From sequence record PQ100635.1: a DNA stretch of 64,000 nt; one strand, given 5' to 3'. Below are positions 774-54,742 of this stretch, piece after piece. Each line of letters begins with the position of its first letter. Position 1 is the stretch's first letter. Under the pieces are notes generated by a model. The model saw only the letters and a list, made by a program, of their open reading frames with translations. It made no database searches and was not told the origin of the DNA. The translations under genes were made by a program, and so were the position numbers. Source of the DNA: Escherichia phage PNJ-9.

Positions 774-801
774 TTTACTTCTCCTCTAGTTGTGTTACTA
801 T
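774..801 (+). promoter_or_regulatory. early sigma70-type promoter (TTTACT -35, 16-bp spacer, TACTAT -10) with dyad CTCCTCTAGTTG/CAACTAGAGGAG flanking the -10
   Basis: Hexamers and spacing read directly; same module repeated elsewhere in window. Confidence 0.55.
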
Positions 802-830
802 AGACCTGTCAACTAGAGGAGAAATCAAAA

Positions 831-4055: not shown

Positions 4056-4358
4056 ATGGCCTTAAGAGCGATAGCTGTCATGGCGATGCTGGGGTTTTTT
4101 GCAGCAACAACTCCTATCGTTGGTACTGCGTACACTGACCCATATTTTGATAACTTTATGGAATCAGGGATTAAAAACGTATATACTTTGTTTGAAATTC
4201 AAAATGTCGAGAATTCTGAAAAATTCTATAAGTATATGGTAAAGCATTACAAAAATAGCCCCTGTGATGATGCATTTGAATGTCATGAACAAGGCATAAA
4301 AACTGCCAGACAATTTGCCGAGTTCATGAAAATAAAATTAGAGCCTACATCTATCTAA
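4056..4358 (+). CDS. rI: lysis inhibition regulator RI
   Basis: 100 aa; signal-anchor N-terminus and DPYFDNFMESGIKNVY...KNSPCDDAFEC match T4 RI from memory. Confidence 0.8.
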   Translation: MALRAIAVMAMLGFFAATTPIVGTAYTDPYFDNFMESGIKNVYTLFEIQNVENSEKFYKYMVKHYKNSPCDDAFECHEQGIKTARQFAEFMKIKLEPTSI

Positions 4359-4393: not shown

Positions 4394-4404
4394 GCATCTA
4401 TCAG

Positions 4405-4432
4405 TTTACTTCTCCTCAGGTTGTGTTATAGT
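4405..4432 (+). promoter_or_regulatory. early promoter (GTTTAC, 17-bp spacer, TATAGT) with CTCCTC/GAGGAG dyad
   Basis: Read directly; member of repeated promoter module family. Confidence 0.55.
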
Positions 4433-4459
4433 AGTCCTTACTTACTAGAGGAGAACGTT

Positions 4460-4639
4460 ATGTCACGTAAAGAAAAAATTTCTAAGTTAATGTTTTTGAT
4501 TGAAGAGTACGCTAATGCGGTATCTGATTGGGAAAATGCTCATGGTTGCGAAGATGGAGACATCGACATTAACAGAGCTATGAAAAAGATGGCCGAAGCC
4601 CACTCCGAATTGCAAATGTATGTTAACGAGATTATGTGA
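4460..4639 (+). CDS. small protein, REQ-family-like (59 aa)
   Basis: ATG preceded by GAGGAG; upstream part of track ORF 4391..4639 overlaps promoter. Confidence 0.45.
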   Translation: MSRKEKISKLMFLIEEYANAVSDWENAHGCEDGDIDINRAMKKMAEAHSELQMYVNEIM

Positions 4640-4646: not shown

Positions 4647-4856
4647 ATGCTTTACGATTATACTGGAAAATCTGAAGACGGTGTACTTGAACTTTTACCT
4701 GAAAGCGCTGAAGATGACGATATGACGACGGTGATGTTTTGTAAAAATGGTCCTGGGGATAAGGGATGGATTTATCTTCGTCAAGAAAATGACCTAATTG
4801 TTTTGGACCCTAAACAAGTTGAAGAACTTTATCAACATTTAAAACACAATCGGTAG
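4647..4856 (+). CDS. hypothetical protein (69 aa)
   Basis: ATG after GAGGA; in frame with track ORF 4620..4856. Confidence 0.45.
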   Translation: MLYDYTGKSEDGVLELLPESAEDDDMTTVMFCKNGPGDKGWIYLRQENDLIVLDPKQVEELYQHLKHNR

Positions 4857-4885
4857 TTTACATCTTGGTAGGACTATGTTATAGT
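4857..4885 (+). promoter_or_regulatory. early promoter (TTTACA -35, TATAGT -10) with TAGGACTA/TAGTCCTA dyad
   Basis: Read directly. Confidence 0.5.
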
Positions 4886-4913
4886 AGTCCTATCAAAACA
4901 AACGGAGAACAAA

Positions 4914-5024
4914 ATGAAACTTTTGCTTATCGCTTATGTTGTAGTACAATACAATTATCCGATGTTTACTTATAACATGGTAAACGGCATAGTGAATCTT
5001 ATTGAAACGAGTATGGTAAAATGA
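4914..5024 (+). CDS. small ORF (36 aa), below track threshold
   Basis: ATG after GGAGAA RBS downstream of early promoter; ATGA-coupled to next ORF. Confidence 0.3.
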   Translation: MKLLLIAYVVVQYNYPMFTYNMVNGIVNLIETSMVK

Positions 5025-7530: not shown

Positions 7531-7554
7531 GGTTAAAATATTTTTAAAAAGTAG

Positions 7555-7583
7555 TGTACATGCTTTTAGGATATGTTATTATA
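7555..7583 (+). promoter_or_regulatory. early promoter (TGTACA -35, TATTAT -10)
   Basis: Read directly; shares the TATAGACCTATCAA downstream motif of the module family. Confidence 0.45.
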
Positions 7584-7620
7584 GACCTATCAAAACGAAA
7601 TGAGTAAATTGGAGAATAAA

Positions 7621-8601
7621 ATGTTCAACGTTCAAATCAAAAAAGGTATCTATCGTAATAACGAAATCTCTGGTTCTTATGTTGCCACAAAGACCTGGTT
7701 CCCAGCAAAGCTTAATCCTGAATGTTCCCACTTAGGTGATGGTAAAATTTTCGTTATGATTGATGGTTCTGAACGCGGAGTATGGGTCTTCAAATCAGAC
7801 ATCGTAATGGAAGGAGTTGAGACGTCACCAGTTGCAGTTGTTGAAAGCACTGAAGATATGAAAACTCGTATCAACAAACGTTTTAAAGTAATGAACATGA
7901 TGACGAATGGCATTATCGATGGCAAAATTCGTTCACTCATTATTTCAGGTGCAGCTGGTATTGGTAAGACGTATTCTCTGGATAAAGCACTTAATAATGC
8001 TAATGATAACGGTTTCATCAAATACAAAAGCATTAATGGTAAAATCTCTGGTATTGGCCTTTACGAACAACTTTGGCTCAACCGTGATGCGGACAGCGTT
8101 CTCTTAATCGACGACGTTGACGTATTCTCAGATATGGACATCTTGAACCTTCTTAAAGCAGCATTAGATACTGGAGATAAACGCAAAGTTTGCTGGAGCA
8201 CTGCGTCATCTTATCTCGATGATAAGGGTATTGATAAAGAATTTGAGTTTGAAGGTACTATCGTTTTCATTACAAACGTTGATATCGATAAAGAGTTAGA
8301 ACGCGGTTCGAAACTTGCCCCACACCTTCAAGCTTTAGTATCTCGTTCAGTGTATCTCGACCTTGGAGTACACTCTAATGAAGAGATTATGGTTCGAGTT
8401 GAAGATGTAATATTATCTACTGACATGATGCAGAAACGTGGTCTGACAGATGCAGAAACGTATAAAGCCTTGTCCTGGATGAAGGCTAACGTATCTCGTC
8501 TTCGCAATGTATCATTACGTACGGCTCTTTACGTAGCAGATTTTATTTCAACTGATAAAGATGGTTGGGAAGAAATCTCGGAAGTTACTTTACTGAAATA
8601 A
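7621..8601 (+). CDS. AAA+/P-loop ATPase (326 aa)
   Basis: Walker A SGAAGIGKT and Walker B VLLIDDVD; ATG after GGAGA RBS. Confidence 0.6.
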   Translation: MFNVQIKKGIYRNNEISGSYVATKTWFPAKLNPECSHLGDGKIFVMIDGSERGVWVFKSDIVMEGVETSPVAVVESTEDMKTRINKRFKVMNMMTNGIIDGKIRSLIISGAAGIGKTYSLDKALNNANDNGFIKYKSINGKISGIGLYEQLWLNRDADSVLLIDDVDVFSDMDILNLLKAALDTGDKRKVCWSTASSYLDDKGIDKEFEFEGTIVFITNVDIDKELERGSKLAPHLQALVSRSVYLDLGVHSNEEIMVRVEDVILSTDMMQKRGLTDAETYKALSWMKANVSRLRNVSLRTALYVADFISTDKDGWEEISEVTLLK

Positions 8602-9029: not shown

Positions 9030-9059
9030 GTTTACAAGGTCTATGGTTGTGTTATTATA
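9030..9059 (+). promoter_or_regulatory. early promoter (GTTTAC, TATTAT) with GGTCTAT/ATAGACC dyad
   Basis: Read directly. Confidence 0.5.
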
Positions 9060-9085
9060 GACCTATCAACTACTGGAGGTAAAAC

Positions 9086-9613
9086 ATGAACGCTAAAGAT
9101 ATTTTCAACCTGGTAAATTATAACGACGGTAAATTTAAATCTGAAGCACAAAGCAAGTTCTTTAATGACGTTGCTTATGGTAACGAGATTACCGTGGACG
9201 GAGGTCAGATTTTCAAATCTCGCTGGAATTGGATTGCTATCATCGATTCAGTTGGAATTGTGGAAGTCTACAAAAACACTAACAAAAAACGTACATTATT
9301 CTGGTCTCGTGAAACTAACGAGCAGTACAAAAAGGATAAAGCATCTCGTTTATCTAAAGTAACCCAGGAAGATATCGAGTTTATCAAGAAAGATATCGAG
9401 ATGTACGAAAATTTAATCGCTGAAGACCAGGCAGTACTCGATAAGTTTGATGAAATTAAAGCTTCTCGTGAAATCCCTGACTTCATGAAAGAAACAGTAA
9501 ATGAACGATACGCTCTCACTTCAGAACGTATTGCAAACTATACAAAACAGAAAGCAGAACGTATTAGTACTCTTCGGAAATTTGAAGAACGTTTAAAGAC
9601 GGTTCACGCATAA
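9086..9613 (+). CDS. hypothetical protein (175 aa)
   Basis: ORF with GGAGGT RBS. Confidence 0.55.
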   Translation: MNAKDIFNLVNYNDGKFKSEAQSKFFNDVAYGNEITVDGGQIFKSRWNWIAIIDSVGIVEVYKNTNKKRTLFWSRETNEQYKKDKASRLSKVTQEDIEFIKKDIEMYENLIAEDQAVLDKFDEIKASREIPDFMKETVNERYALTSERIANYTKQKAERISTLRKFEERLKTVHA

Positions 9614-9675: not shown

Positions 9676-10671
9676 ATGAGCATTACATCTGATGCGGTAA
9701 AACATGAAATTAACGGTTTATGTGCTTCACAGATTAAAGTGTGGTTTAAAGACCATAATGATCGCAGAGCACTTAATTATGAGCAAATTGCTATCCAAGT
9801 TCATCAATTACTGACTAGTAAATTTGATTTTCATATGCCGTCTGAAATCTATACTAATCTACCGCGAGCGCTTATTAAAGCGTGTAAAGGTTACGGAAAA
9901 TCAATGGCCGATGGAATCTTCAGCGCGCTGAATAAACTTAACGTTCTGTCGATGATTAACTCTAACAACATCCTGCGTAATCTAGGACGTACTGATTTGT
10001 TCGGTCGGGAACAGTGTAAAATGCCTTTGAAATGGATTGTTGCTCATCTTAACGAGAACCAAACACGTTTTATGGCCGTATCAGCACGCTTACAAATGGG
10101 CCTAGATCGTCAGATGAACTTTAAAACTCATCCACGTTATTCAGGTTCAACAGACTTTTATAAATGTGAGCTTCAAAAGGTTGCAGGTAAAACTGTCTTA
10201 GTAGTTCGTGTAACGTTTGAAGGACGACGACAAGGATATTTTGACCTAATCGGCTCTGGTCTTAAACATTGCGGATTTATTGACGAAGTTGATATCAAGC
10301 GAGACAGCATTGGATACCGTATTGGATATGTTTGTACTCTTAAAGAAGAGATTTCAGGACCAGTACCAGGACTAAAAGACGTTAGATATAAAGACGAGCT
10401 CGTTGAAGAAATAAAAGAAGTTGAATATGATATCAACCAAGAAGATGCTCTTAAAGACCTTATTGATGAACTGAACCAAGACGTTATTCCGGTTCAGAAA
10501 TTTGAATCAAAACATGCTGAGCAAATCAAATACTTTGAAGCTTTGATTAACGAACTTAATGTAACTATTCAACAGACTGACGATGAAATCTCGCGATTAG
10601 CAGGCTTAAACGGTAAAAATAAAACAGAACGAGCTAATCTTATTCAGGTAGTAAAACTTCTTAAGGAATGA
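9676..10671 (+). CDS. hypothetical protein (331 aa) with C-terminal coiled coil
   Basis: ORF with GAGGAA RBS. Confidence 0.55.
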   Translation: MSITSDAVKHEINGLCASQIKVWFKDHNDRRALNYEQIAIQVHQLLTSKFDFHMPSEIYTNLPRALIKACKGYGKSMADGIFSALNKLNVLSMINSNNILRNLGRTDLFGREQCKMPLKWIVAHLNENQTRFMAVSARLQMGLDRQMNFKTHPRYSGSTDFYKCELQKVAGKTVLVVRVTFEGRRQGYFDLIGSGLKHCGFIDEVDIKRDSIGYRIGYVCTLKEEISGPVPGLKDVRYKDELVEEIKEVEYDINQEDALKDLIDELNQDVIPVQKFESKHAEQIKYFEALINELNVTIQQTDDEISRLAGLNGKNKTERANLIQVVKLLKE

Positions 10672-10700
10672 TGTACAACCAAGGATGGTTGGAGTATAAT
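10672..10700 (+). promoter_or_regulatory. early promoter (TGTACA, 17 bp, TATAAT) with CAACCA/TGGTTG dyad in spacer
   Basis: Read directly; near-identical copies at 11691 and 54713. Confidence 0.55.
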
Positions 10701-10726
10701 AAATTTTTCAACATGAGGAATATAAA

Positions 10727-11686
10727 ATGGCTTCTATTACACGTAGAGAACTTATCAAAGAATTTACCTCGAACGCATATACCCCAGGACCTAATCCTAT
10801 CCGTATGCCTGTAAAGACTCCTGAAGAGATTGAGGAAATCTGTTCATATTATGGGATTAATTCTCGTAAGTTTACTCAATTTGAATGCGTTACTAACACA
10901 CCCGTTAAAGAGTTCATTAAAAATGGTGAGTTCAGCCGTTTATTGGCCAAACAGAAACTTCGTAATTTTTGTATCGGCGGCAACGGACAATATTTTGCTA
11001 AACAGTTCAGAAATAACCTTAACAATCTGATGGCCATTGCTTCTCGTATTCGTCCTCAAGCAATTAACATGAAACATTTGAAATATACTTACGATAAGTT
11101 AGAAATCATGGTTATCAGTGAGAACGAGTTCACTCTTACGTATAAACCTAAGAATGATAACGTTGCTCGTGTATTCCACCAAGCGTTGGAAGTTTTAGGT
11201 GATAATATCCACCAGATTAAAGCAATTTATTCTCGTGAGCTTAATATTATCAACCCTATCAAGAATAAGGGCCATATCGCTATCCAGGCTCGTGTATCTG
11301 TTGGTAAAAAGGTTCCTGCGCCATGGTGGCACAAAGACTCTGAATACTATCAAAATCTTAAAAAGGAAAATGCAACGTTCGAAGCATCGCTTACTGGGAC
11401 CCCAATTGAACAGGCCGAAGTCCTAAGTGCTTATTCTACTTCGGGTAAATCAATGTTTAAAGGTTTGCCAAATGTGTGCAAACTGTCTGCAGTAAAACTA
11501 AATGTTTCTAATGACCTTCTTCCGGCCGAAGATTACCATTACAATCAAATCAAGGCCACTATGGACCAACTGTCTGTTGAACTTGACAAAGCACAAGCTA
11601 AGCTTCGTGATGCTCAAAGTGTTGTAACGAATCTCCAGTTGCAGTATTCTAAACTTTTTAACGCAATGAATGCATTAAAATCATAA
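10727..11686 (+). CDS. hypothetical protein (319 aa) with C-terminal coiled coil
   Basis: ORF with GAGGAA RBS. Confidence 0.55.
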   Translation: MASITRRELIKEFTSNAYTPGPNPIRMPVKTPEEIEEICSYYGINSRKFTQFECVTNTPVKEFIKNGEFSRLLAKQKLRNFCIGGNGQYFAKQFRNNLNNLMAIASRIRPQAINMKHLKYTYDKLEIMVISENEFTLTYKPKNDNVARVFHQALEVLGDNIHQIKAIYSRELNIINPIKNKGHIAIQARVSVGKKVPAPWWHKDSEYYQNLKKENATFEASLTGTPIEQAEVLSAYSTSGKSMFKGLPNVCKLSAVKLNVSNDLLPAEDYHYNQIKATMDQLSVELDKAQAKLRDAQSVVTNLQLQYSKLFNAMNALKS

Positions 11687-11690
11687 ATCA

Positions 11691-11720
11691 GTTTACAACC
11701 AAGGATGGTTGGAGTATAAT
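11691..11720 (+). promoter_or_regulatory. early promoter (GTTTAC, 17 bp, TATAAT)
   Basis: Same module as 10672 and 54713. Confidence 0.55.
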
Positions 11721-11748
11721 GAATCTATCTTAACGAGAGGAAAATATT

Positions 11749-12699
11749 ATGACACGTTCACATTACATTGATTATTTTGCAGGTCTTATCGCTAATGTTC
11801 ATGCCCAACGTGCTTCTGGTTCATTAGGATTTGATGTTCCACACCGAGATGTAGTAAGTGGTATTCTTCGCGATTTTGGTACATATACCGGCCAAGAAAA
11901 TCATATCTGTAAAGATACTCAAAATGCGTATTCTCATTCATTAGGGACACTGCTTCAATGGTTCAAACGTTCTCGTTTATTATCTTCTACTGTAGCTCGC
12001 GATAACATTAAAAACTTTATGAAGCCGAGCTTTATTAAATCTGTGACATCTAAAACCGATTTGGTTGAATTCACTATTGTTAATGATGTTAAAAAGACTC
12101 ATTTGGCTGATTGGTTATCTACCATTCCTGAAACTAAATTTGCTGATAAATTTGCTTGTGAATTCAATAACCAAGTGAATATGCTTTTTAAACATTCTCG
12201 TAAATTATTCACAGGTGGCGATGATCGTACAAATACAGTTCATGTTAAAGATTGGGTTACTGCAGTATTCAAACCAACCGGTAATGGTAACGCATCATTA
12301 TCAATTGATATCCAGGTTCCTTATTACTACTCACGTAATCTCGGTACCATGAAAGCCGAAGAAATTAATAAGCACAACAAAACCATTCGTTCGCTGTCTT
12401 ATAAACTTCGCATGATGTTAAGAATCATGGACGTGGTAGAAATGTATGATGAAACCGAAGATAACGGTTCGATGTTATTCAGTTCTCGTATTCAAATTAA
12501 GCTGAAGAATCCTAACGAGTATAAGCCTAAGCCTATTAAAGAACCTAAAGCAGAAAAGGTTGATATCATGGCTGAAGAACGTGAGTACCTCAAATCTCGT
12601 CTGAAAGAAGTCGAAGCCCAGATTGCAGAACAAACTAAATCGTTAAAAGCTCTGAATGCGAAAGCGGACGGTTTACGAAATGCCATTGAGGTTTTATAA
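11749..12699 (+). CDS. hypothetical protein (316 aa) with C-terminal coiled coil
   Basis: ORF with GAGAGGAAA RBS. Confidence 0.55.
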   Translation: MTRSHYIDYFAGLIANVHAQRASGSLGFDVPHRDVVSGILRDFGTYTGQENHICKDTQNAYSHSLGTLLQWFKRSRLLSSTVARDNIKNFMKPSFIKSVTSKTDLVEFTIVNDVKKTHLADWLSTIPETKFADKFACEFNNQVNMLFKHSRKLFTGGDDRTNTVHVKDWVTAVFKPTGNGNASLSIDIQVPYYYSRNLGTMKAEEINKHNKTIRSLSYKLRMMLRIMDVVEMYDETEDNGSMLFSSRIQIKLKNPNEYKPKPIKEPKAEKVDIMAEEREYLKSRLKEVEAQIAEQTKSLKALNAKADGLRNAIEVL

Positions 12700-13004
12700 T
12701 GAAACTACGTCTTTTAGAGGATATTGATATGAGCACTAATCACGGCTTGGTTAAGTTTATTGACGATAGTTCAAAGATTGAATTTGTTCAGCGAGATAAA
12801 ATCCACGGTGAAGAAGAGTTCGTTCCTCCAGCATGGAACGAAATCATGAAAATGGTTGAACGACGTGAAAATGCTGCCAAATCGGCAGCAAAACATCCAT
12901 GTCCGGAATGTGGAACTATCCAAGTCCAACTGGTTAACTGGACCACTGATAACTTGAAATTGAAATGCCGTAAATGCTTCCACAAATTTGAGAGAACATT
13001 ATAA
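12699..13004 (+). CDS. zinc-ribbon protein (101 aa)
   Basis: CPECG...CRKC motif; TAATG overlap start. Confidence 0.5.
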   Translation: MKLRLLEDIDMSTNHGLVKFIDDSSKIEFVQRDKIHGEEEFVPPAWNEIMKMVERRENAAKSAAKHPCPECGTIQVQLVNWTTDNLKLKCRKCFHKFERTL

Positions 13005-14026: not shown

Positions 14027-14154
14027 ACCGTGGTATTCGGCTCGATGGGAGACAGTCGAGCCAGACGTCGAAACAGTTTACAATGACGAAGAAACGTGTT
14101 ATGATGAACCTTCAATAAATGAATTAATTGATATGGAAATGGGAAGAGATTATT

Positions 14155-14325
14155 ATGCAAGTTAAATTATTGTACCGTTTATTAAAAAATGGCAAGCATG
14201 ATTGGTATTTGCTTATTAAAACCGATCCGAATTTTTTCTCTGGACAACCATTTACAGTTCGTCCTACTAAACGTCAGCTTCGCAAAGCTAAACGTTCCCA
14301 TCGTAACTTTTATAGAGAATATTGA
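14155..14325 (+). CDS. small basic protein, RPTKRQ-motif family (56 aa)
   Basis: ATG after GGGAAGAG RBS; C-terminal TVRPTKRQLRKAKRSHRNFY shared with 14750 and 44383 ORFs. Confidence 0.45.
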   Translation: MQVKLLYRLLKNGKHDWYLLIKTDPNFFSGQPFTVRPTKRQLRKAKRSHRNFYREY

Positions 14326-14740: not shown

Positions 14741-14749
14741 GGGCTTATT

Positions 14750-14929
14750 ATGAAAACTGCATTATTTTTTGGCGAAAGAACAAACGGTCAAAAATCTTGG
14801 AAATTTGTTATAATTGGTGCTCCAAACAATCCGAACATGAGGACTTCAATCATTTCGGTAACACGTCCTACTAAAAGAATGATTCGCCAATACAAACGTT
14901 TCCATCGTGACTTTTATAACATTTATTAA
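14750..14929 (+). CDS. small basic protein, RPTKRQ-motif family (59 aa), below track threshold
   Basis: C-terminal VTRPTKRMIRQYKRFHRDFY. Confidence 0.4.
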   Translation: MKTALFFGERTNGQKSWKFVIIGAPNNPNMRTSIISVTRPTKRMIRQYKRFHRDFYNIY

Positions 14930-15441: not shown

Positions 15442-15980
15442 AAATTGAAAAAGAAATTGAAGGATTAATTCATAAAACTAATAAAGATCTTTTGAACGAG
15501 AATGCTAATAAAGATTCTCGTGTTTTTCCAACTCAACGGGACCTTATGGCTGGTATTGTGTCTAAGCACATTGCCAAAAATACGGTCCCGTCTTTTATTA
15601 TGAAAGCACATGAAAGCGGAATTATCCATTTCCATGATATTGATTATTCTCCTGCTCTTCCATTTACTAATTGCTGTTTAGTCGATTTAAAGGGGATGCT
15701 TGAGAATGGATTTAAATTAGGCAATGCTCAAATTGAAACGCCTAAATCGATTGGTGTTGCTACTGCAATTATGGCACAAATTACTGCGCAGGTTGCTTCC
15801 CATCAATACGGTGGAACTACATTTGCGAATGTAGATAAAGTCCTTTCTCCTTATGTTAAACGCACCTACGCAAAACATATTGAAGATGCAGAAAAATGGC
15901 AAATCTCTGATGCGTTGAATTATGCCCAATCTAAAACAGAAAAAGATGTCTATGACGCGTTCCAGGCGTATGAGTTAATT
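15438..15980 (+). CDS. nrdD: anaerobic ribonucleotide reductase NrdD, exon 1
   Basis: N-terminal NrdD-like sequence; reading frame hits TAA at the start of the intron; boundary +/- a few nt. Confidence 0.75.
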
Positions 15981-16989
15981 TAATTCAGGCTCATGTAAAA
16001 CCGGTCTAAACGGGGAACCTCTCTAGTAGACAATCCCGTGCTAAATGTTCTTTTGAACTAAATGCCTAACGACTAACCGTGATGAATGTAGCGGTGTAGA
16101 ATAGAAGCTAATGCTATTCGAAACGGCCGGCATCGAAAGATGAAGATATAGTCTAATCTGCATGGCGACATGCAGCAGTCATCTTGTATAAATAAGATTA
16201 TCTTATGAATACGAGGTGAAACAATGAAATGGATAAAAAGACGTTGTACTAAAATAAAAGATAAAGACGCATTTACATACTTAGTTAAGTTTTCTAATGG
16301 TGACATTTATATCGGTTATAAAAAATTTAGAACAATTAAAAACAAGCCCACAAACTGGAAAACTTACACAACGTCATCTAAGTATATAAATGAACGCTTA
16401 AAAACTGATACACCTACTAAATGGATAATTTTAAAAACATTTGATAGTTATAAAGATGCATTAAAACATGAAGAAGAGGTCATACGTAAATATTTTTATA
16501 GCAAAAAATGTTTAAATAAATCCATAGGCGGTAAAAAGTTTTATAAGCATCCGGATACTGAAGAACATATTCAAAAATTAAGAGATGCTCATAAGGGTAA
16601 AGTGTTATCCGAATCTCATAAAAACAATATAAAATCTTCTGTAGCTGAATATTATGCTAAAAACGGAAGATCTAAGGAACATGTGCAAAATAATATCAAT
16701 AGTCGAAAAAGTAAAAAACAAGTATCGATAAAGCTTAAAAATAAAACTTTTAGAAGTTTTAAAAAAGCAGCGGAATATTTAAATTGCACTGAAAGTGAAG
16801 TCGAAACTCATCCTCTTGTTTTGAGTATTAAGACTACTATTCATAAAGTTCCTGAATATGTGGTTGTTGACGGTATTAAGTATACGTCTTATATAGAAGC
16901 AGCTAAAGCGCTAAATTTTCATCCTAGCACTATAAAAGAACGTTGCATATCTATGGACTATCCAAATTTTGTTGTTTCATATAAACGGG
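15981..16989 (+). mobile_element. group I self-splicing intron in nrdD
   Basis: Begins TAATTCAGGCTC and contains TCTAAACGGGGAACCTCTCTAGTAGACAATCCCGTGCTAAAT, near-identical to the T4 td-type intron core from memory; ends on G; boundaries approximate. Confidence 0.75.
16187..16194 (+). promoter_or_regulatory. late promoter (TATAAATA) inside intron
   Basis: Exact consensus 30 nt upstream of the intron ORF. Confidence 0.5.
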
Positions 16990-16994
16990 CATGA
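16224..16994 (+). CDS. intron-encoded homing endonuclease (GIY-YIG-like)
   Basis: 256 aa; Y..NGDIYIGY N-terminal motif; located in intron 3' region like T4 I-TevII; GAGGTGA RBS. Confidence 0.65.
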   Translation: MKWIKRRCTKIKDKDAFTYLVKFSNGDIYIGYKKFRTIKNKPTNWKTYTTSSKYINERLKTDTPTKWIILKTFDSYKDALKHEEEVIRKYFYSKKCLNKSIGGKKFYKHPDTEEHIQKLRDAHKGKVLSESHKNNIKSSVAEYYAKNGRSKEHVQNNINSRKSKKQVSIKLKNKTFRSFKKAAEYLNCTESEVETHPLVLSIKTTIHKVPEYVVVDGIKYTSYIEAAKALNFHPSTIKERCISMDYPNFVVSYKRA

Positions 16995-18300
16995 ATTTGC
17001 GACTCATGCTGAATATAATGATGAAGTAAATACACTTTTCAGCTCTAATGGACAAACGCCTTTTGTAACAATTACATTTGGCACGGGAACTGACTGGACT
17101 GAACGAATGATTCAGAAAGCAATTCTGAAAAATCGTATTAAAGGTCTTGGCCGTGACGGGATAACTCCTATTTTCCCTAAACTTGTTATGTTCGTTGAAG
17201 AGGGTGTCAATCTTTATAAAGACGACCCGAACTACGATATTAAGCAGCTTGCTTTAGAATGCGCAAGCAAAAGAATGTATCCTGATATTATTTCAGTTAA
17301 GAACAATAAAGCTATTACTGGTTCTTCAGTTCCTGTTTCTCCGATGGGCTGTCGTAGTTTCTTGAGCGTATGGAAAGATTCGACTGGTAATGAAATTCTT
17401 GATGGACGTAATAATCTTGGTGTTGTAACACTGAATCTTCCTCGTATTGCATTAGATTCTTATATTGGAACACAATTCAATGAACAGAAATTTGTTGAGC
17501 TATTTAATGAACGAATGGATCTGTGTTTTGAAGCTTTGATGTGTAGAATTAGTTCTTTAAAGGGTGTTAAAGCAACTGTAGCTCCTATTCTTTACCAAGA
17601 AGGTGCATTCGGGGTTCGTCTTAAACCTGATGACGATATAATTGAGTTATTTAAAAATGGTAGAAGTTCAGTGTCCCTAGGATACATTGGTATTCACGAA
17701 TTGAATATTCTTGTCGGACGTGATATTGGACAGGAAATTTTAACTAAAATGAATGCTCGTCTTAAGCAGTGGACTGAAAGAACCGGTTTTGCTTTTAGTT
17801 TATATTCTACTCCTGCTGAAAACCTTTGTTATCGCTTCTGTAAACTTGATACAGAAAAATATGGAAGTGTAAAAGATGTCACCGATAAAGGCTGGTACAC
17901 TAACAGTTTCCACGTTTCAGTAGAAGAAAATATTACTCCATTTGAAAAGATTTCTCGTGAAGCCCCATATCATTTCATTGCAACAGGCGGTCACATTTCT
18001 TATGTTGAACTTCCAGATATGAAAAATAACTTAAAAGGTCTTGAGGCTGTCTGGGATTATGCTGCACAACATTTAGATTATTTTGGTGTTAATATGCCAG
18101 TAGATAAATGTTTTACATGTGGAAGTACTCATGAAATGACTCCTACTGAAAACGGATTTGTTTGTTCAGTTTGTGGAGAAAGTGATCCTAAAAAGATGAA
18201 CACCATAAGAAGAACATGTGGTTATTTGGGAAATCCGAACGAACGCGGATTTAATCTCGGTAAAAATAAAGAAATCATGCATAGGGTTAAACACCAATGA
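16990..18300 (+). CDS. nrdD: anaerobic ribonucleotide reductase NrdD, exon 2
   Basis: C-terminal glycyl-radical motif RRTCGYLGN and Zn-site CFTCGS...CSVCG; frame continuous with exon 1 after splicing. Confidence 0.8.
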   Translation, partial: HEFATHAEYNDEVNTLFSSNGQTPFVTITFGTGTDWTERMIQKAILKNRIKGLGRDGITPIFPKLVMFVEEGVNLYKDDPNYDIKQLALECASKRMYPDIISVKNNKAITGSSVPVSPMGCRSFLSVWKDSTGNEILDGRNNLGVVTLNLPRIALDSYIGTQFNEQKFVELFNERMDLCFEALMCRISSLKGVKATVAPILYQEGAFGVRLKPDDDIIELFKNGRSSVSLGYIGIHELNILVGRDIGQEILTKMNARLKQWTERTGFAFSLYSTPAENLCYRFCKLDTEKYGSVKDVTDKGWYTNSFHVSVEENITPFEKISREAPYHFIATGGHISYVELPDMKNNLKGLEAVWDYAAQHLDYFGVNMPVDKCFTCGSTHEMTPTENGFVCSVCGESDPKKMNTIRRTCGYLGNPNERGFNLGKNKEIMHRVKHQ

Positions 18301-19810: not shown

Positions 19811-19840
19811 GTTTACATCCTCAATAGATGTGTTAAGATT
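19811..19840 (+). promoter_or_regulatory. early promoter (GTTTAC, TAAGAT-type -10)
   Basis: Read directly; same variant at 49221. Confidence 0.45.
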
Positions 19841-19867
19841 AAACCATCTACTATAGAGGAAAATAAA

Positions 19868-20050
19868 ATGACAATTGAAGATAAAGAAATTAAGGTCGAC
19901 CAGTACTATTCTGTCAATGGTAATGCAATACAGATAACCAGAGTTTCAAGCCTGGATGTTTGGTACCGTTCAATCAAATATCCAGAAATTGGTGAAATGC
20001 TTTGTGACCGTGGTATCTTCTGTTCAATTGCGAAGGAAATTAAGCCATGA
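19868..20050 (+). CDS. hypothetical protein (60 aa)
   Basis: ATG after AGAGGAAAA RBS. Confidence 0.5.
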   Translation: MTIEDKEIKVDQYYSVNGNAIQITRVSSLDVWYRSIKYPEIGEMLCDRGIFCSIAKEIKP

Positions 20051-22129: not shown

Positions 22130-22137
22130 TATCTCGT

Positions 22138-22172
22138 GCTTTAAGATAGGTCTCTAAATATTATGATATAAT
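22138..22172 (+). promoter_or_regulatory. promoter region upstream of gene 55 (TGCTTTA box; TATAAT and TATAGACCTAT module)
   Basis: Motifs read directly; exact architecture unclear. Confidence 0.35.
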
Positions 22173-22201
22173 AGACCTATGAATTGAGCTAAGAGGTACT
22201 T

Positions 22202-22759
22202 ATGACTGAACAAAAACCTAAAAATAACTATGTGAATAATAAAGAGCTTCTCGCCGCTATAATCGAGTGGAAAAAGGAGCTCTTAAATAATAAAGACCCA
22301 AACAAAATTATTCGTCAGAATGATACCATCGGTTTAGCAATTATGCTTATCGCCGAAGGCCTGTCCAAACGTTTCAACTTTTCAGGATATACCCAGTCTT
22401 GGAAGCAGGAGATGATTGCAGATGGGATTGAAGCCTCTATTAAGGGACTTCATAATTTCGACGAAACTAAGTACAATAACCCACATGCATACATAACTCG
22501 AGCTTGTTTTAATGCTTTTGTCCAACGTATCAAAAAAGAGCGTAAGGAAGTTGCAAAGAAATATAGTTACTTCGTTCATAACGTCTACGACAGTCATGAC
22601 GATGATATGGTAGCGTTGGTAGATGAAACGTTTATTCAAGACATCTACGATAAAATGACGCATTATGAAGAATCCGCTTATAAAGCTCCTGGGGCTGAAA
22701 AGAAGGAAGTTGTTAGCGATTCGCCTAGTTTGGATTTTTTATATGAGGATGACAATTGA
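22202..22759 (+). CDS. 55: late-transcription sigma factor gp55
   Basis: 185 aa; NYVNNKELL...[50 protein letters not shown] matches T4 gp55 from memory. Confidence 0.9.
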
Positions 22760-43386: not shown

Positions 43387-43416
43387 GTTTACATCTCCCT
43401 CTAGGCATGATATGAT
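43387..43416 (+). promoter_or_regulatory. early promoter (GTTTAC, 17 bp, TATGAT)
   Basis: Read directly. Confidence 0.5.
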
Positions 43417-43445
43417 GTACTTACACTAACCGAGAGGAAAACATT

Positions 43446-43820
43446 ATGAATATGTCTCAAGCAATTTTTACTGCAATCACCGAAAACACAACTGTTGAAG
43501 TAGTTTCTCCGCTGGCAACCTACGTTATTCTTGCTCCTAAAACTATTGTATCTCGTATGGAAAACATGGGCAAACGTATCGTACAAATTGTTGGAGCCGG
43601 AAATCAAAAACTTGATTATCTGCGAACCATCAAAGCTTATGAACATTTCCAACTCGAAAAAGGTTCTCCTATCCAGGTAGAACTCGTAAATGGTGATATC
43701 GTTCGAGCAATGTTCCATCATTTCTATGCATTGAATGACCCATCTAAAGCAGTTCGTTTAATTGCATACGACGCAAACCAAAACGAAATCAACGCAGATG
43801 TATCTAAATTACGTTTTTAA
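43446..43820 (+). CDS. hypothetical protein (124 aa)
   Basis: GAGAGGAAAA RBS. Confidence 0.5.
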   Translation: MNMSQAIFTAITENTTVEVVSPLATYVILAPKTIVSRMENMGKRIVQIVGAGNQKLDYLRTIKAYEHFQLEKGSPIQVELVNGDIVRAMFHHFYALNDPSKAVRLIAYDANQNEINADVSKLRF

Positions 43821-43849
43821 GTTTACTTCTCCAGTAGTTGTGTTATTAT
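43821..43849 (+). promoter_or_regulatory. early promoter (GTTTAC, TATTAT) with perfect 12-bp dyad CTCCAGTAGTTG/CAACTACTGGAG
   Basis: Read directly; right arm overlaps the SD of the next gene. Confidence 0.55.
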
Positions 43850-43875
43850 AGACTTATCAACTACTGGAGAACAAA

Positions 43876-44193
43876 ATGAAAACCATCGATTGTAAAGCAG
43901 AATTTAAGATTTTTTATCACGGTTCAAGTAGTTCAGCTAACATCGAAAACATGCTTTGTCCTCCTGAGGAAACAGGAGTTCTGTCTGAAACTGGACGTAA
44001 GAAAAACTTGGATCGTGTATTCTTTACTGAAGATATCGGTTTAGCAAAGATTTATGCAGGACGAGCAGCACGCTCTTATGGAGGTGAACCACGTCTCTAT
44101 CGAGTAATTTCTCCGGTAGACGTAGTTCAAATGAATAATACTAAAGGTGCTACAGTTTATCACGCTGAATGGGCATTTTGCGAGGAAATATGA
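43876..44193 (+). CDS. Arr-like (rifampin-ADP-ribosyltransferase family) small ADP-ribosyltransferase
   Basis: 105 aa; FYHGSSSSANI and RVFFTEDIGLAKIYAG...EPRLYRVISP align with Arr motifs from memory. Confidence 0.5.
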   Translation: MKTIDCKAEFKIFYHGSSSSANIENMLCPPEETGVLSETGRKKNLDRVFFTEDIGLAKIYAGRAARSYGGEPRLYRVISPVDVVQMNNTKGATVYHAEWAFCEEI

Positions 44194-44597: not shown

Positions 44598-44627
44598 GTT
44601 TACAAGCATCGCATACTGTGTTACTAT
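44598..44627 (+). promoter_or_regulatory. early promoter (GTTTAC, 17 bp, TACTAT)
   Basis: Read directly. Confidence 0.5.
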
Positions 44628-44655
44628 CTTTCTATCAACTACAGAGGAAATTGAA

Positions 44656-45024
44656 ATGAAAAAATTAATCGCTTTAGCAATGGTATTTGGATTAACCGGA
44701 TGTGGTGCCCACGGCTTTATCCCTAATAACGTTGGCCAACTGATTTACAATCCGAATGTTAAACAGTATGACCAACCTAAAGTTGAAGTGGAAGACCCGG
44801 TTACTGTAGGTAATCGAATGATTCAAGCTGATGCCCATGCTCAACGTTATCGTGACTCTGATACTGTAGCATTATCAAAAGAACAACGCGTTAAAGAACA
44901 TTGTCTACAGGCTACTGAAATCGCATTCATTCGCTATGTTGAAACAACTGGTAAAGAGCCTACCCAGAAACAAATCGCGAATAACTACGTCCGGTGTATT
45001 GAACGTTTAAACAAATTTAATTAA
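44656..45024 (+). CDS. predicted lipoprotein (122 aa)
   Basis: Signal peptide with lipobox LTGC; AGAGGAAA RBS. Confidence 0.55.
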   Translation: MKKLIALAMVFGLTGCGAHGFIPNNVGQLIYNPNVKQYDQPKVEVEDPVTVGNRMIQADAHAQRYRDSDTVALSKEQRVKEHCLQATEIAFIRYVETTGKEPTQKQIANNYVRCIERLNKFN

Positions 45025-45084
45025 TTGGTTACACCAAAGTTAAAACAAGATATTATAAACATAACAAATCAAGAGGAAATTAAC

Positions 45085-45333
45085 ATGGAATTATTCGTAG
45101 CTAGTTCAGTAGCAGTTTTAATCGCAGGTATTGGTTCAATCGTCATTTATATGTTGCCTTGGGTAATCGCACTTATTCGTGGCACAAAAAGCACAACAGC
45201 AATCTTCTTTGTATCTTTACTCTTTAACTGGACGATGATTGGTTGGATTGGAACTTTAATTTGGTCTATCGTTGCCGAAAAGAAATCTGCTCAGCAGCCT
45301 CAACAAGTAATTATTATTCGCGAAAAAGAATAA
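45085..45333 (+). CDS. Imm-like superinfection immunity membrane protein (82 aa)
   Basis: Two TM helices; LPWVIALIRG...MIGWIGTLIWSIV resembles the superinfection-immunity family signature. Confidence 0.55.
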   Translation: MELFVASSVAVLIAGIGSIVIYMLPWVIALIRGTKSTTAIFFVSLLFNWTMIGWIGTLIWSIVAEKKSAQQPQQVIIIREKE

Positions 45334-45337: not shown

Positions 45338-45367
45338 GTTTACATTATAGATGGACTATGGTATAGT
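45338..45367 (+). promoter_or_regulatory. early promoter (GTTTAC, 17 bp, TATAGT) with GGACTAT/ATAGTCC dyad
   Basis: Read directly. Confidence 0.5.
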
Positions 45368-45396
45368 AGTCCTATCAAATCAACTAAGGAGTTAAA

Positions 45397-45690
45397 ATGA
45401 AAAAGTTATCATTGGCAGCAATCTTACTTGCGGTATCATGTGCACCAGCTCCAGTTACAGCAGGTTATGATAAAGACCTCTGTGAGTGGTCAATGACTGC
45501 AAATCAAGAAGATGTTGAACAACAAATCTTCTCTGATATCATGAACATCACTAAACGAGACCGTCCTAATATGGTTAATAAAGTTGTTGAACAACTTAAG
45601 TCTGGTGGTATTATGCAGTACAATTATGTTTTGTATTGTGACCCTAATTTCGATAACAAAGATATCGTAACCGAAATCACAGGTGAATAA
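45397..45690 (+). CDS. predicted lipoprotein (97 aa)
   Basis: Signal peptide with lipobox LAVSC; AAGGAG RBS. Confidence 0.55.
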   Translation: MKKLSLAAILLAVSCAPAPVTAGYDKDLCEWSMTANQEDVEQQIFSDIMNITKRDRPNMVNKVVEQLKSGGIMQYNYVLYCDPNFDNKDIVTEITGE

Positions 45691-47067: not shown

Positions 47068-48090
47068 ATGGCTGAATGGATAGATAATGAATTTGCTTAT
47101 CGTGCGTTTTCTCACCTACCTCGTTTTAGACAAATCAATAATTCAAGCACATTTAAATTAACATTTCGTTGTCCAGTTTGTGGCGACTCCCAGACAGATG
47201 CAATGAAAGCTCGCGGTTGGTATTATGGCGGTACTCCTGGTAATGTACATTGCTATAACTGCCAATACCACAATACAATTTCCGGATACTTAAAAGAGTA
47301 TGATGAAGAGCTTTACCGCGAATATCTAATGGAAGTTCGTAAAGAAAAAGCTAGAATGGAACCAAAGATTGAAAAGGTTCCTGAAGCTAAGCCGGAGCCA
47401 GAGAAAAAGACTATAAATTCTTTGCCGTCTTGTTCTCGTCTGGACAAGCTGCCTGAAGAGCATCCTATTGTGAAATATGTTAAGTCTCGATGCATTCCTA
47501 AAGAATCATGGAACAGATTATGGTTCACATTAGAATGGCCTAAATTGGTCAACAAGATTCAACCTGGTACGTATAAGAAAGAGATTCCCGAACCACGTTT
47601 AGTGATTCCTATTTTTAATAAAGACGGGAAGGCTGAGTCATTCCAAGGACGTGCACTTCGTAAAGATGCTCCTCAGAAATATATCACTATTAAAGCGTTT
47701 GAGTCTGCAACAAAAATTTATGGTGTTGAACGTGTTAAGGAAGGAGACGTCTGGGTAATGGAAGGCCCTATTGATAGTTTATTCATACCCAATGCAATCG
47801 CTATTACAGGCGGCTCAATAGATTTAGATGTGGTACCATTTAAAGAACGTCGGGTATGGGTAATGGATAATGAACCTAGGCATCCGGATACTATAGCTCG
47901 CATGAAGCGATTAGTTGATGCAGGCGAACGTGTCATGTTCTGGGACCGAGCTCCATGGAGATCAAAGGATGTGAATGATATGGTAATGAAAGAAAATGCA
48001 ACACCACAAGAAATTTTAGAATATATGAAACAGAATATTTCAAGTGGGTTGCATGCTAAAATGAGATTATCTCGTTATTCTAAGATTTAA
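47068..48090 (+). CDS. 61: DNA primase gp61
   Basis: 340 aa; N-terminal zinc ribbon CPVCGD...CYNC and TOPRIM-like core; T4 gp61 is 342 aa. Confidence 0.9.
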   Translation: MAEWIDNEFAYRAFSHLPRFRQINNSSTFKLTFRCPVCGDSQTDAMKARGWYYGGTPGNVHCYNCQYHNTISGYLKEYDEELYREYLMEVRKEKARMEPKIEKVPEAKPEPEKKTINSLPSCSRLDKLPEEHPIVKYVKSRCIPKESWNRLWFTLEWPKLVNKIQPGTYKKEIPEPRLVIPIFNKDGKAESFQGRALRKDAPQKYITIKAFESATKIYGVERVKEGDVWVMEGPIDSLFIPNAIAITGGSIDLDVVPFKERRVWVMDNEPRHPDTIARMKRLVDAGERVMFWDRAPWRSKDVNDMVMKENATPQEILEYMKQNISSGLHAKMRLSRYSKI

Positions 48091-48284
48091 ACAAGCCCTA
48101 TAATAGCAAAGGCCAAATCAACTACAGTATCTAATGGAACAGAAGGAACCATAACACCATGGGCAACTAACAATGGCGCAATACCGAAGTTCCATGAAAT
48201 AATGCCACCTACAACTATTGCAGCGATAGCAGTTTTCTTTTTATTGCCTTTAATAGCGTTGATTAACGATGGAAGTTTAAACAT
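48087..48284 (-). CDS. small membrane protein (65 aa) encoded antisense between genes 61 and 56
   Basis: Strong SD (TAACTAAGGAGATATT-ATG on minus strand); two hydrophobic segments; region has no + strand ORF. Confidence 0.5.
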   Translation of the reverse strand: MFKLPSLINAIKGNKKKTAIAAIVVGGIISWNFGIAPLLVAHGVMVPSVPLDTVVDLAFAIIGLV

Positions 48285-49220: not shown

Positions 49221-49250
49221 GTTTACAACCACTAAAAACTGTGTTAAGAT
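49221..49250 (+). promoter_or_regulatory. early promoter (GTTTAC, 17 bp, TAAGAT)
   Basis: Read directly. Confidence 0.45.
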
Positions 49251-49278
49251 ATTCTTACTTACTCAAGAGGAGAACAAT

Positions 49279-49506
49279 ATGTTAAATCGTTGGATTAAAC
49301 CTAATAACACATTAGGTGCTTTGATTGCTCAAGAAGTTTCATTGAAATACGGCCTTGGATATTATGATGATGTAGTCGTACACTCGTTCATGATGGATGG
49401 TGAAGACGTCAAATTTAATGCCGAAATCCGTTGGGATGACGGTGGTGTTCGTTTTGTTCGAGGAACAATTAATGCTTACGATGCTGAAGAAGTTGTTTGC
49501 TGTTAA
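49279..49506 (+). CDS. hypothetical protein (75 aa)
   Basis: ATG after AGAGGAGAA RBS. Confidence 0.5.
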   Translation: MLNRWIKPNNTLGALIAQEVSLKYGLGYYDDVVVHSFMMDGEDVKFNAEIRWDDGGVRFVRGTINAYDAEEVVCC

Positions 49507-50541: not shown

Positions 50542-50702
50542 AAGAGAAATTTAAAGAGAAATTCTTACTAGAAATCAAGGAAAAAGACTTTGAGACATGG
50601 TATCGAATGGTGAAAGGGTTGACGTTGCTTTTTAAAGCATCCTTATTCATGTTAGAACAACCTGGCCCTGATGGTCCTTTAGTAGGAAAGCTTAAAAAGT
50701 AG
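50538..50702 (+). CDS. small hypothetical protein (54 aa), below track threshold
   Basis: ATGA-coupled start. Confidence 0.35.
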   Translation: MKEKFKEKFLLEIKEKDFETWYRMVKGLTLLFKASLFMLEQPGPDGPLVGKLKK

Positions 50703-50730
50703 TTTACATTCCCTCCTCTCGTGTTATGAT
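50702..50730 (+). promoter_or_regulatory. early promoter (GTTTAC, 16 bp, TATGAT)
   Basis: Read directly. Confidence 0.5.
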
Positions 50731-50831
50731 AGGCTTATCTTTAAATGGAGGTCTATCATGACATGTCAATCTGAACTTCAAGAACGCGAATACCTAACAA
50801 AATCATTCATTTAAAAATGTTGAATTTTTAG

Positions 50832-50860
50832 TGTACAAACTCTTCCGATGATGATACTAT
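50832..50860 (+). promoter_or_regulatory. early promoter (TGTACA, 17 bp, TACTAT)
   Basis: Read directly; tandem with promoter at 50702. Confidence 0.5.
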
Positions 50861-50888
50861 ACCTTTATCAACCACAGGAGAAACCTAA

Positions 50889-51497: not shown

Positions 51498-51571
51498 CTG
51501 AATTGGAATAACCGGATGGAACTCAGAACCATTATAACACATAAAAAATTAAAGCATTTTATGAAAAAGAG

Positions 51572-51600
51572 TGTACACTACCTGAGGGCATGATATTATA
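51572..51600 (+). promoter_or_regulatory. early promoter (TGTACA, TATTAT)
   Basis: Read directly. Confidence 0.4.
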
Positions 51601-51649
51601 GGACATATCAGCTAAATGACCTAACGTCCGTAAGACAGAGGAAAATATT

Positions 51650-54707: not shown

Positions 54708-54712
54708 AACCA

Positions 54713-54742
54713 GTTTACAACCAAGGATGGTTGGAGTATAAT
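54713..54742 (+). promoter_or_regulatory. early promoter (GTTTAC, 17 bp, TATAAT)
   Basis: Third copy of the CAACCAAGGATGGTTGGAGTATAAT module. Confidence 0.55.

Follow-up and report, generated by a model that had tools for sequence, protein, structure and literature searches.

Early promoter cassettes of Escherichia phage PNJ-9 with embedded inverted repeats: probable RNA hairpins and their possible role in insulating genes from read-through transcripts

The subject of this study is a set of promoter cassettes, and the inverted repeats (dyads) embedded in some of them, in a window of 64,000 nucleotides (nt) of Escherichia phage PNJ-9 (sequence record PQ100635.1). The window is 96–98% identical to Escherichia phages of the genus Mosigvirus, which are RB69-like and of the T4 type. 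Its + strand carries nearly all of its genes, whose order leads from vs.x, regB and tk through nrdC, nrdD and gene 55 to the replication genes 47-43, uvsX and 41 in the first part, and on to the primase, the mod genes, dda, motB, cef, the topoisomerase and rIIA/B in the second part. A search of Rfam at the gathering threshold gave zero matches in the window.

Here, we have located 21 promoter modules in the window, all of them co-oriented on the + strand. Each consists of an A/T-rich upstream stretch, a GTTTAC −35 element, a spacer of 17–18 nt, a TGn-extended TAnnnT −10 element, a Shine-Dalgarno (SD) sequence and an ATG, often with AGACCTATCAA downstream of the −10 and ahead of the SD. TGn precedes the −10 in 16 of the 21 modules, the 20 nt 5′ of the −35 are 71% A+T against 63% window-wide, and the consensus around the −10 is TGTGT-TATnAT-AnACCTATCAA. 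A position-weight scan, with a two-block matrix trained on the obvious copies, converged on 19 modules on the + strand and on zero modules on the minus strand of the window; two weaker sites (12671 and 51571) raise the count to 21. Ten shuffles of the sequence gave 0–2 matches at the listing threshold and 0–1 at a stricter one, and the strict pattern GTTTAC-N15-18-TATNNT has 13 matches in the window where 0.94 are expected. The modules are confined to 0.8–19.8 kb and 43.4–55.7 kb, and the scan found none in the replication-gene block (19.9–43.3 kb). Directly downstream of every module is a + strand open reading frame (ORF) with an SD, and many of these ORFs encode 36–125 amino acids of unknown function. 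In 13 of the 21 modules the stop codon of the preceding gene is no more than 5 nt from the −35 or overlaps it, and the module there occupies the entire intergenic gap of 55–65 nt.

That these modules are early promoters is supported by comparison with T4 and RB69. They share with the published early promoters of these phages the GTTTAC element, the TGn-extended −10, the A-rich upstream region and C at −3 to −1 (PMC2988021, PMC1524935), and the features of the RB69 early-promoter logo agree with the window consensus (PMC1524935). They adjoin, in the same orientation, orthologues of T4 early genes; the ORF after the first module (773) is RegB, and this module aligns as an orthologue with the T4 regB promoter, a typical early promoter (PMC3014915). 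Together with the placement of the phage in Mosigvirus, these observations make the modules almost certainly T4-type early promoter cassettes. The original prediction, which had read them in this way and counted at least 18 copies, is borne out on both points, and the nine coordinates that it listed, from 774 to 55704, are all real modules. The sequence that it placed after the −10 holds in part: TAGACCTATCAA, with at most one mismatch, is found 3′ of the −10 in seven modules only (801, 4885, 7582, 9058, 43849, 45367 and 55732) and not in the rest.

Some of the cassettes carry a dyad across the −10, which we measured as the longest perfect complement between the segment from the −35 to the −10 and that from the −10 to the ATG. 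The longest perfect arms have 14 base pairs (bp) at 773 and 43821 and 9 bp at 55704; arms of 8 bp are found at 4404, 4856 and 9030, and arms of 6 bp at 19811, 43387 and 45338. The other 12 modules have a complement of 3–5 bp, which is the chance level (mean 4.6). It had been claimed that most modules carry a dyad of up to 12 perfect base pairs centred on the −10. As a set, the dyads are indeed significant against shuffled sequence: 6 of the 21 modules have perfect arms of 8 bp or more, where 0.15 are expected and where the maximum in 300 shuffle sets was 2. Yet they are present in a minority (nine of 21, even at 6 bp or more), their longest arms exceed 12 bp, their axis is not fixed, and there are at least two kinds of dyad. 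A module's own two arms pair better with each other than with the arms of other modules in the set (permutation p = 1e-4), and the folding z-scores reach −3.5 to −5 for 773, 4856, 43821 and 50702, with a mean of −0.98 over the 21 modules.

By the position of the stem, three classes can be distinguished. In class I (773, 4404, 43821 and 55704, and in interrupted form 19811), the stem is formed by the beginning of the spacer (TTCTCC...) and the SD region (...GGAGAA), and a loop of 17–22 nt encloses the −10. In class II (4856, 9030 and 45338), the 3′ half of the spacer pairs across a 6-nt loop with the end of the −10 plus AGNCCTAT, a partner that spans positions −8 to +4. Class III (10671, 11691 and 54713) has a 5-bp hairpin entirely within the spacer. 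The dyad axis shifts relative to the −10, with loop sizes from 6 to 22 nt. The 21 modules are:

773 to 833, + strand: regB early promoter cassette, class I; −35 at 773–778, −10 at 796–801, predicted start at about 808, ATG at 831; 5′ arm 779–792 (TTCTCCTCTAGTTG) and 3′ arm 810–823 (CAACTAGAGGAGAA), 14 perfect bp, the 3′ arm enclosing the SD (817–821).
4404 to 4462, + strand: mobD.2a cassette, class I (weaker); arms 4410–4421 and 4444–4455 with 8 perfect bp (TTCTCCTC/GAGGAGAA); canonical terminator between the stop codon (4356–4358) and the −35.
4856 to 4916, + strand: mobD.2 cassette, class II; arms 4865–4877 (TTGGTAGGACTAT) and 4884–4896 (GTAGTCCTATCAA), 11 Watson-Crick and 2 G·U pairs, 6-nt loop inside the −10, SD outside the stem, z −3.8 to −4.8.
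7554 to 7623, + strand: nrdC.10 cassette (−35 GTGTAC); no significant dyad; canonical terminator upstream.
9030 to 9088, + strand: nrdC.8 cassette, class II; arms 9037–9047 and 9054–9064 with 8 perfect bp (AGGTCTAT/ATAGACCT).
10671 to 10729, + strand: nrdC.5 cassette (−35 ATGTAC), class III; spacer hairpin AACCA-AGGA-TGGTT.
11691 to 11751, + strand: nrdC.3 cassette, class III; same 36-nt core as 54713.
12671 to 12731, + strand: weaker promoter-like module; the upstream ORF ends inside it, with its stop codon within the −10; no dyad.
14076 to 14157, + strand: module upstream of pin; no dyad, and likewise none in its T4 orthologue at 47452.
19811 to 19870, + strand: cassette of an ORF of 60 amino acids, class I interrupted; CCTC/GAGG plus TAGATG/CATCTA, z −2.1 to −2.4; the ORF is putatively 55.6-like, from its size and position.
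43387 to 43448, + strand: cassette after the gene 41 terminator (GGAGAC-TTCG-GTCTCC-TTT); no meaningful dyad.
43821 to 43878, + strand: cassette of the operon of an ORF of 105 amino acids and dmd, class I; arms 43827–43840 (TTCTCCAGTAGTTG) and 43858–43871 (CAACTACTGGAGAA), 14 perfect bp, z −4.6 to −5.0.
44598 to 44658, + strand: cassette without a dyad.
45027 to 45087, + strand: cassette (−35 GGTTAC) without a dyad.
45338 to 45399, + strand: Spackle (sp) cassette, class II with a short stem; GGACTAT (45353–45359) and GTAGTCC (45366–45372).
49221 to 49281, + strand: cassette after a canonical terminator (GGAATCC-TTCG-GGATTCC-T7); no dyad.
50702 to 50760, + strand: cassette before an 18-codon modB-like remnant; a different fold, in which the −10 region pairs with the SD and ATG region.
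50831 to 50891, + strand: cassette of an ADP-ribosyltransferase gene (−35 GTGTAC); no dyad.
51571 to 51652, + strand: weaker module upstream of srd (−35 GTGTAC); no dyad.
54713 to 54775, + strand: cassette of a motB-like gene, class III; hairpin within the spacer.
55704 to 55763, + strand: cef cassette, class I; TTCTCCTCT (55710–55718) and AGAGGAGAA (55748–55756), 9 perfect bp, within a longer imperfect dyad (55710–55728 and 55738–55756).

The design can be seen in the regB cassette. From 773 to 833 it reads as a TAG stop codon overlapping GTTTAC, a 17-nt spacer, TACTAT, AGACCTGTCAA, CTAGAGGAGAA and ATG, and its predicted fold has a minimum free energy of −21.6 kcal/mol (z −4.5). RegB is an endoribonuclease that cuts GGAG in early SDs, its own included, and its target sites are protected by RNA secondary structure (PMC3014915). 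In T4, the regB promoter is built alike, with arms of another sequence, TTTTCCTCTTGACT and AGTTAAGAGGAGAA, which form 12 Watson-Crick and 2 G·U pairs (−23.1 kcal/mol, z −5.2). We extended the comparison to 16 loci from IMG/VR, with RegB proteins of 40–99% identity, which together with T4 and the window represent eight promoter types. Seven of the eight fold (z −3.1 to −6.9) with the SD paired to the spacer by arms of different sequence, and one of these types has a class II stem nested inside the class I stem. The eighth has no dyad, and a canonical terminator is found just upstream of it.

Other T4 promoters have dyads as well. In T4 positions 1–76 kb, minus strand, 10 of 24 GTTTAC promoters have a dyad across the −10, namely those of regB, denV, ipI, ipII, ipIII, e.7, mobD.2 (14 bp), nrdC.8, dmd and motB.2. 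T4 and the window agree on the presence of the dyad at regB, mobD.2, nrdC.8 and the dmd operon and on its absence at nrdC.10, pin and mrh.2, which indicates that the feature is gene-specific and old. The T4 RefSeq record has no promoter annotation, and a literature search for start-site maps of T4-type phages found none. We also observed that the T4 denV promoter is nearly identical in type to the class I modules of the window (ATCTCCTGTAG...TACTATAGACCTATCAACTACAGGAGA).

A half-module of related appearance precedes gene 55 (ATG at 22202), at 22137–22204. It has TATAAT (22167–22172) followed by AGACCTATGAA, no GTTTAC −35, a MotA-box-like TGCTTTA (22137–22143), and a dyad around the −10 formed by ATAGGTCT (22146–22153) and AGACCTAT (22173–22180). 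It may represent the design as adapted to a middle promoter.

Evidence that the arms are maintained as RNA structure came from related phages. Using a pattern that fixed the promoter core only and left the spacer and the SD region free, we matched 105 T4-type genome stretches in IMG/VR, which together with the window hold 256 distinct modules. Within the window, the arms at 43821 differ from those at 773 by a compensatory triplet change, TCT/AGA to AGT/ACT; in related phages, the class I arms come in at least five mutually compensating versions (ATT/AAT, TGT/ACA, AGT/ACT, TCT/AGA and TCATG/CATGA). In 88 unfiltered modules with spacers of 17 nt, aligned without gaps, 48.8% of the cells of the class I helix are paired, compared with 44.3 ± 0.8 in shuffles, and the covariation score is 0.204, compared with 0.146 ± 0.010. 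Neither value was reached in any of the 500 shuffles, and both are above all controls with slid partners. For the class II helix, covariation in one fixed register of this alignment was not above shuffles, because the search pattern fixed the 3′ arm and the register varies with spacer length. A register-free test showed that the variable base in the spacer GGNCT is complemented in AGN′CC after the −10 in 43 of 43 modules. Among the 256 modules, mismatches inside the dyads are G·T in 17 cases and A·C in 3, and in 91 of the 133 modules that fold strongly, the + strand gives a more stable structure than the − strand. Both biases suggest that the structure is read as + strand RNA rather than as a symmetric DNA site. 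Taken together, the inverted repeats in about a third of the modules are very probably + strand RNA hairpins under selection. Some IMG/VR modules join the 5′ arm of one type to the 3′ arm of another, e.g. ATCTCCATTAG with CTACTGGAGGT, which is what a crossover within the shared TACTATAGACCTATCAA core would give.

These data bear on two other views of the dyads. As the repeats bracket the −10 and the start site, and the shut-off of T4 early promoters is incompletely understood (PMC3014915), they might be DNA operators for a dimeric shut-off regulator, or cruciforms that expose the −10. However, arm sequences differ among modules while complementarity is kept, the axis varies and the loop ranges from 6 to 22 nt, G·T is tolerated where A·C is not, and over half of the promoters have no dyad; extrusion of a cruciform would in addition wreck the −35/−10 spacing. 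We consider this view highly improbable and rejected it for the variation of the arms in sequence and register. It is equally hard to believe that the dyads are functionless by-products, either of descent from duplicated cassettes or of quasi-palindrome mutation by template switching. Several modules are clearly related copies, and imperfect palindromes in T4 are known to mutate by template switching, but neither process would account for independent arm sequences that keep pairing at regB in several lineages, for the strand-specific G·T bias, or for the strong negative association with terminators that is described below.

To understand what such hairpins could do, we compared the folding of two kinds of transcript. 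Following the geometry adopted for the promoters of RB69 and T4 (PMC1524935), we set the start at 7 nt past the −10 end; the predicted start then falls between the arms or at the 3′ arm, with the −10 in the loop. In the read-through context (−120 to +40), the predicted probability that the SD is unpaired is about 0.00 at 773, 4404, 19811, 43821 and 55704, compared with 0.25–0.78 in the transcript from the module's own promoter (0.40 at 773, 0.62 at 19811, 0.75 at 43821 and 0.78 at 55704), the leaders of which are predicted to fold at only 0 to −2 kcal/mol.

The distribution of terminators is likewise relevant to read-through RNA. In the window, a canonical hairpin with a T-run lies between the stop codon and the −35 at 4404, 7554, 43387 and 49221, and the dyads of these four modules are weak or absent. 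Upstream sequence is long enough for this comparison in 254 modules: of the 55 that have a terminator there, 1 carries a dyad, compared with 65 of the 199 that have none (Fisher p = 2e-7). That dyads are scarce where a terminator lies upstream suggests that they sit where RNA polymerase is expected to arrive from upstream. The original prediction had none of this: the long dyads are predicted to occlude the SD, their arms behave as selected RNA structure, and dyads exclude canonical terminators.

We argue that the cassettes could work as follows. Each is a complete expression unit between genes and combines a strong sigma-70 early promoter with a short conserved leader, an SD and a start codon. 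In about one third of them, an inverted repeat has evolved at the positions that the promoter leaves free in sequence, namely the −35/−10 spacer and the segment between discriminator and SD. As the cassette's own promoter is predicted to start about 7 nt after the −10, inside the repeat, its mRNA would lack the 5′ arm and its ribosome-binding site would be open. RNA read through from an upstream promoter would have both arms and would fold. In class I (regB, mobD.2a, the putative 55.6-like gene, the leader of the dmd operon and cef), the 3′ arm is the SD (GGAG) itself, and read-through RNA would remain untranslated for that gene, would probably be shielded from cleavage by RegB, and could be exposed to Rho. 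In class II (mobD.2, nrdC.8 and sp), the hairpin would form just 5′ of the SD and would more likely serve as a barrier or as a 3′-end structure for the upstream message. In either case the hairpin would insulate as a canonical terminator does at other cassettes. That the embedded hairpins fold in read-through RNA and insulate the downstream gene is, in our opinion, the best explanation and a probable one. Insulation of the downstream gene from read-through transcripts, in class I by hiding the SD, is also the most likely single role of the hairpin, although for this role we find the case about evenly balanced.

Several observations weigh against insulation. The hairpin is not a property of the module but an optional addition, since 12 of the 21 lack a dyad. 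The class II hairpins leave the SD free, and occlusion of the SD cannot be the common function. A similarly buried SD is predicted for 19% of 62 other genes in the window, compared with 7 of 19 modules; given this background the enrichment at modules is modest, and it is the switch between the two forms of transcript that is the notable feature. The transcription start is placed by promoter geometry only. Related modules are non-independent samples, and their shared ancestry inflates the covariation, G·T and Fisher statistics. RNAalifold on nine regB promoter sequences of the eight lineages returned no consensus structure in a common register, since the stems are in shifted registers between lineages. 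Lastly, the upstream stop codon is only about 6 nt from the 5′ arm, and partial opening of the stem by a ribosome that terminates there could result in coupling rather than insulation.

The last point can be developed into an explanation of its own, in which ribosomes terminating at the abutting stop codon melt the stem, so that translation of the downstream gene from read-through RNA depends on translation of the upstream one. The position of the stop codon in 13 of the 21 modules, which amounts to 6–10 nt from the 5′ arm, would suit it. Nevertheless, a terminating ribosome would reach only the outer 2–6 bp of a 14-bp stem, and coupling gives no reason for the exclusivity with terminators and leaves the class II hairpins unexplained; we regard it as improbable.

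A more serious competitor, although still an unlikely one, is that the hairpins act on the upstream message, either as attenuators or pause sites without a U-tract or as protective 3′ ends after RegB or RNase E has cut the leader. The mutual exclusion of dyads and canonical terminators would be expected here too, class II hairpins stop just before the exposed GGAG of the SD, and a promoter-early stem-loop of phage phi1 lowered lacZ expression about as much as rrnB T1 (PMC2839356). On the other hand, T-runs are absent after all of the dyads, none of which is on the list of terminator-like structures of the window; the 3′ arms run into A-rich leaders, e.g. ATCAAAAATG at 824. We rejected the identity of the dyads as intrinsic terminators for this lack of U-tracts. 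Moreover, class I stems lie exactly over the SD in several lineages, which a pure 3′-end role would not need.

If insulation is accepted, it can tentatively be taken further, although we are inclined to doubt a claim this broad: the hairpins could be a general and selected insulator against read-through in the early regions of T-even-type phages, interchangeable with intrinsic terminators, with genes whose SD is in the arm translated only from their own early promoter and their GGAG hidden from RegB on read-through RNA. Translation from the own promoter only would then apply to regB in at least five lineages, cef, the leader of the dmd operon, mobD.2a, and denV and nrdC.8 of T4. Were the hairpins to work as insulators, this would explain how very strong promoters, by the dozen, can be packed closely head to tail in a single orientation without downstream genes accumulating expression from all the promoters upstream. 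It would also limit the toxic nuclease RegB to a short pulse, with translation only of RNA made at the regB early promoter, followed by cleavage at the exposed GGAG. Such an insulator would add a layer to the timing of early genes that we have not found described in the literature on promoter-early stem-loops and T4 promoters. We found no mention of SD occlusion at early promoters or of a regB hairpin, in a search that did not include the T4 review of Miller et al. 2003, and an earlier mention is possible. Experiments would be well spent on the conserved regB hairpin and on the exclusivity with terminators. Apart from this, the modules give exact gene starts and operon boundaries for the annotation of RB69-like phages, and would be compact, portable promoter and insulator parts for phage engineering.

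The kind of element is already described. The promoter-early stem-loop (PeSL) of phages RB49 and phi1 is an early promoter with a stem-loop that is most often between the −35 and −10 or overlaps the −10; the stem-loop was viewed as a terminator or attenuator, one cut lacZ to about the extent of rrnB T1, and the cassettes were proposed as recombination linkers, with mini-circles shown (Arbiol et al. 2010, PMC2839356). The description was later extended to PST/T4 and nt-1/KVP40 (Comeau et al. 2014, PMC4122927). The modules of the window fit this description: they share the A/T-rich region, early promoter, stem-loop, SD and start codon, lie in variable early regions before small ORFs, and in some cases have a terminator just 5′ of the promoter, as drawn for PST/T4. 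Their composition is likewise PeSL-like, with a dyad in 6–9 modules, a spacer hairpin in 3, a terminator just upstream in 4 and no stem-loop in about 6. The resemblance to PeSL cassettes in the original prediction was a fair one, the position of the stem-loop being as published (PMC2839356). The differences are that the published stems of RB49 and phi1 are G/C-rich, whereas the long stems of the window are A/T-rich, lack U-tracts and pair the spacer with the SD, and that a role in shuffling is weakly supported in the window. The cited descriptions of T4 and RB69 early promoters, unlike the present one, treat them as linear consensus elements, and the words stem-loop, hairpin and palindrome are absent from the text of the RB69 paper of 2006 (PMC1524935).

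For the occlusion of the SD, the closest precedents are the T4 genes e, soc, 49 and I-TevI, where long transcripts bury the SD or AUG and the shorter RNA from an internal promoter, lacking the 5′ strand, is translated (PMC3014915). The window cassettes share with them an SD that is paired in upstream-started RNA and a promoter inside the helix, as predicted here with stems of 8–14 bp. The difference is that the internal promoter of these T4 genes is late (or middle) and delays expression, whereas that of the window cassettes is early and would confine expression to the early period and to RNA from the gene's own promoter. For the internal-protein loci of T-even phages, conserved intercistronic blocks of promoter and stem-loop were described by Repoila et al. 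1994, as cited in PMC2839356. By that account they also consist of T4-type early promoters with A/T-rich stem-loops of variable size flanking small variable genes, but they concern the internal-protein loci only and were interpreted as recombination linkers. The T4 promoters of ipI, ipII and ipIII carry dyads in our analysis.

It has been argued from the PeSL model that such cassettes are mainly recombination linkers, whose cores provide homology for the excision, insertion or exchange of genes and whose stem-loop acts at the DNA level, e.g. as a target of a recombination protein. The original prediction had likewise mentioned a role in modular gene shuffling and proposed a comparison of recombination breakpoints between related genomes. 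We aligned the window to five relatives (mar005P1, ZQ3, JQD51, vB_EQ1 and AV114). The comparison gave about 22 distinct break edges, of which about 4 are at most 25 nt away from a module (44570, about 50800, 54779 and 55690), a count without an intergenic baseline; about 1.2 would be expected from the footprint of the modules alone, which is a rough estimate and not a computed value. For about 18 of the 22 edges the distance to the nearest module exceeds 150 nt. Two modules delimit one replaced segment (54779 and 55690), and a further edge is 16 nt away from module 44598. The modules also have identical stretches of 15–36 nt in common, the longest at 11691 and 54713, the replication block is free of them, chimeric modules occur in IMG/VR, and mini-circles were published for RB49 and phi1 (PMC2839356).

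Closer inspection of these edges is less favourable to linkers. The 50.8-kb break (50797–50801, in 50758–50814) is a deletion of about 503 nt inside a modB-like ADP-ribosyltransferase gene, between ACAAA(A)TC microhomologies, which cut the gene to an 18-codon remnant and left two strong promoters 129 nt apart; the 582-nt gene is intact in vB_EQ1 and AV114. A deletion between two modules was considered for this break and rejected in favour of internal deletion at a short direct repeat. The difference at 54.8–55.7 kb involves tandem motB-like paralogues, and the other differences comprise the insertion of a homing endonuclease in nrdD and small internal replacements. Selection for intact genes would in any case favour breakpoints between genes, and the arm covariation and the G·T bias indicate RNA and not a sequence-specific DNA site. 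The proposal of modular shuffling is thus weakly supported here. We consider it rather unlikely that the cassettes are mainly linkers. A linker role is possible, is not demonstrated by this window, and could accompany the insulator role; the idea bears on the movement of accessory genes among therapeutic T4-type phages.

The 36-nt core CAGTTTACAACCAAGGATGGTTGGAGTATAATGAAT is identical at 11689–11724 and 54711–54746, 43 kb apart and before unrelated genes (nrdC.3 and the motB-like gene), which suggests transfer or conversion of a cassette; a third site, 10674–10700, has 27 nt in common with it.

Some differences from the relatives lie apart from the modules. The nrdD insertion (15973–17014, 1.04 kb) is absent in three close relatives; its ORF of 256 amino acids (16224–16994) matches the homing endonuclease family phrog_314, and Rfam at the gathering threshold gave no intron model for the insertion. 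A segment of about 185 nt (14741–14925) with an ORF of 59 amino acids (14750–14929) is absent in mar005P1 and ZQ3, and its junctions are not at a module. Finally, a lone ORF of 65 amino acids is found on the minus strand at 48087–48284, between the primase and the dCTPase gene, in surroundings that are otherwise one-directional, and is annotated as a hypothetical protein in relatives.

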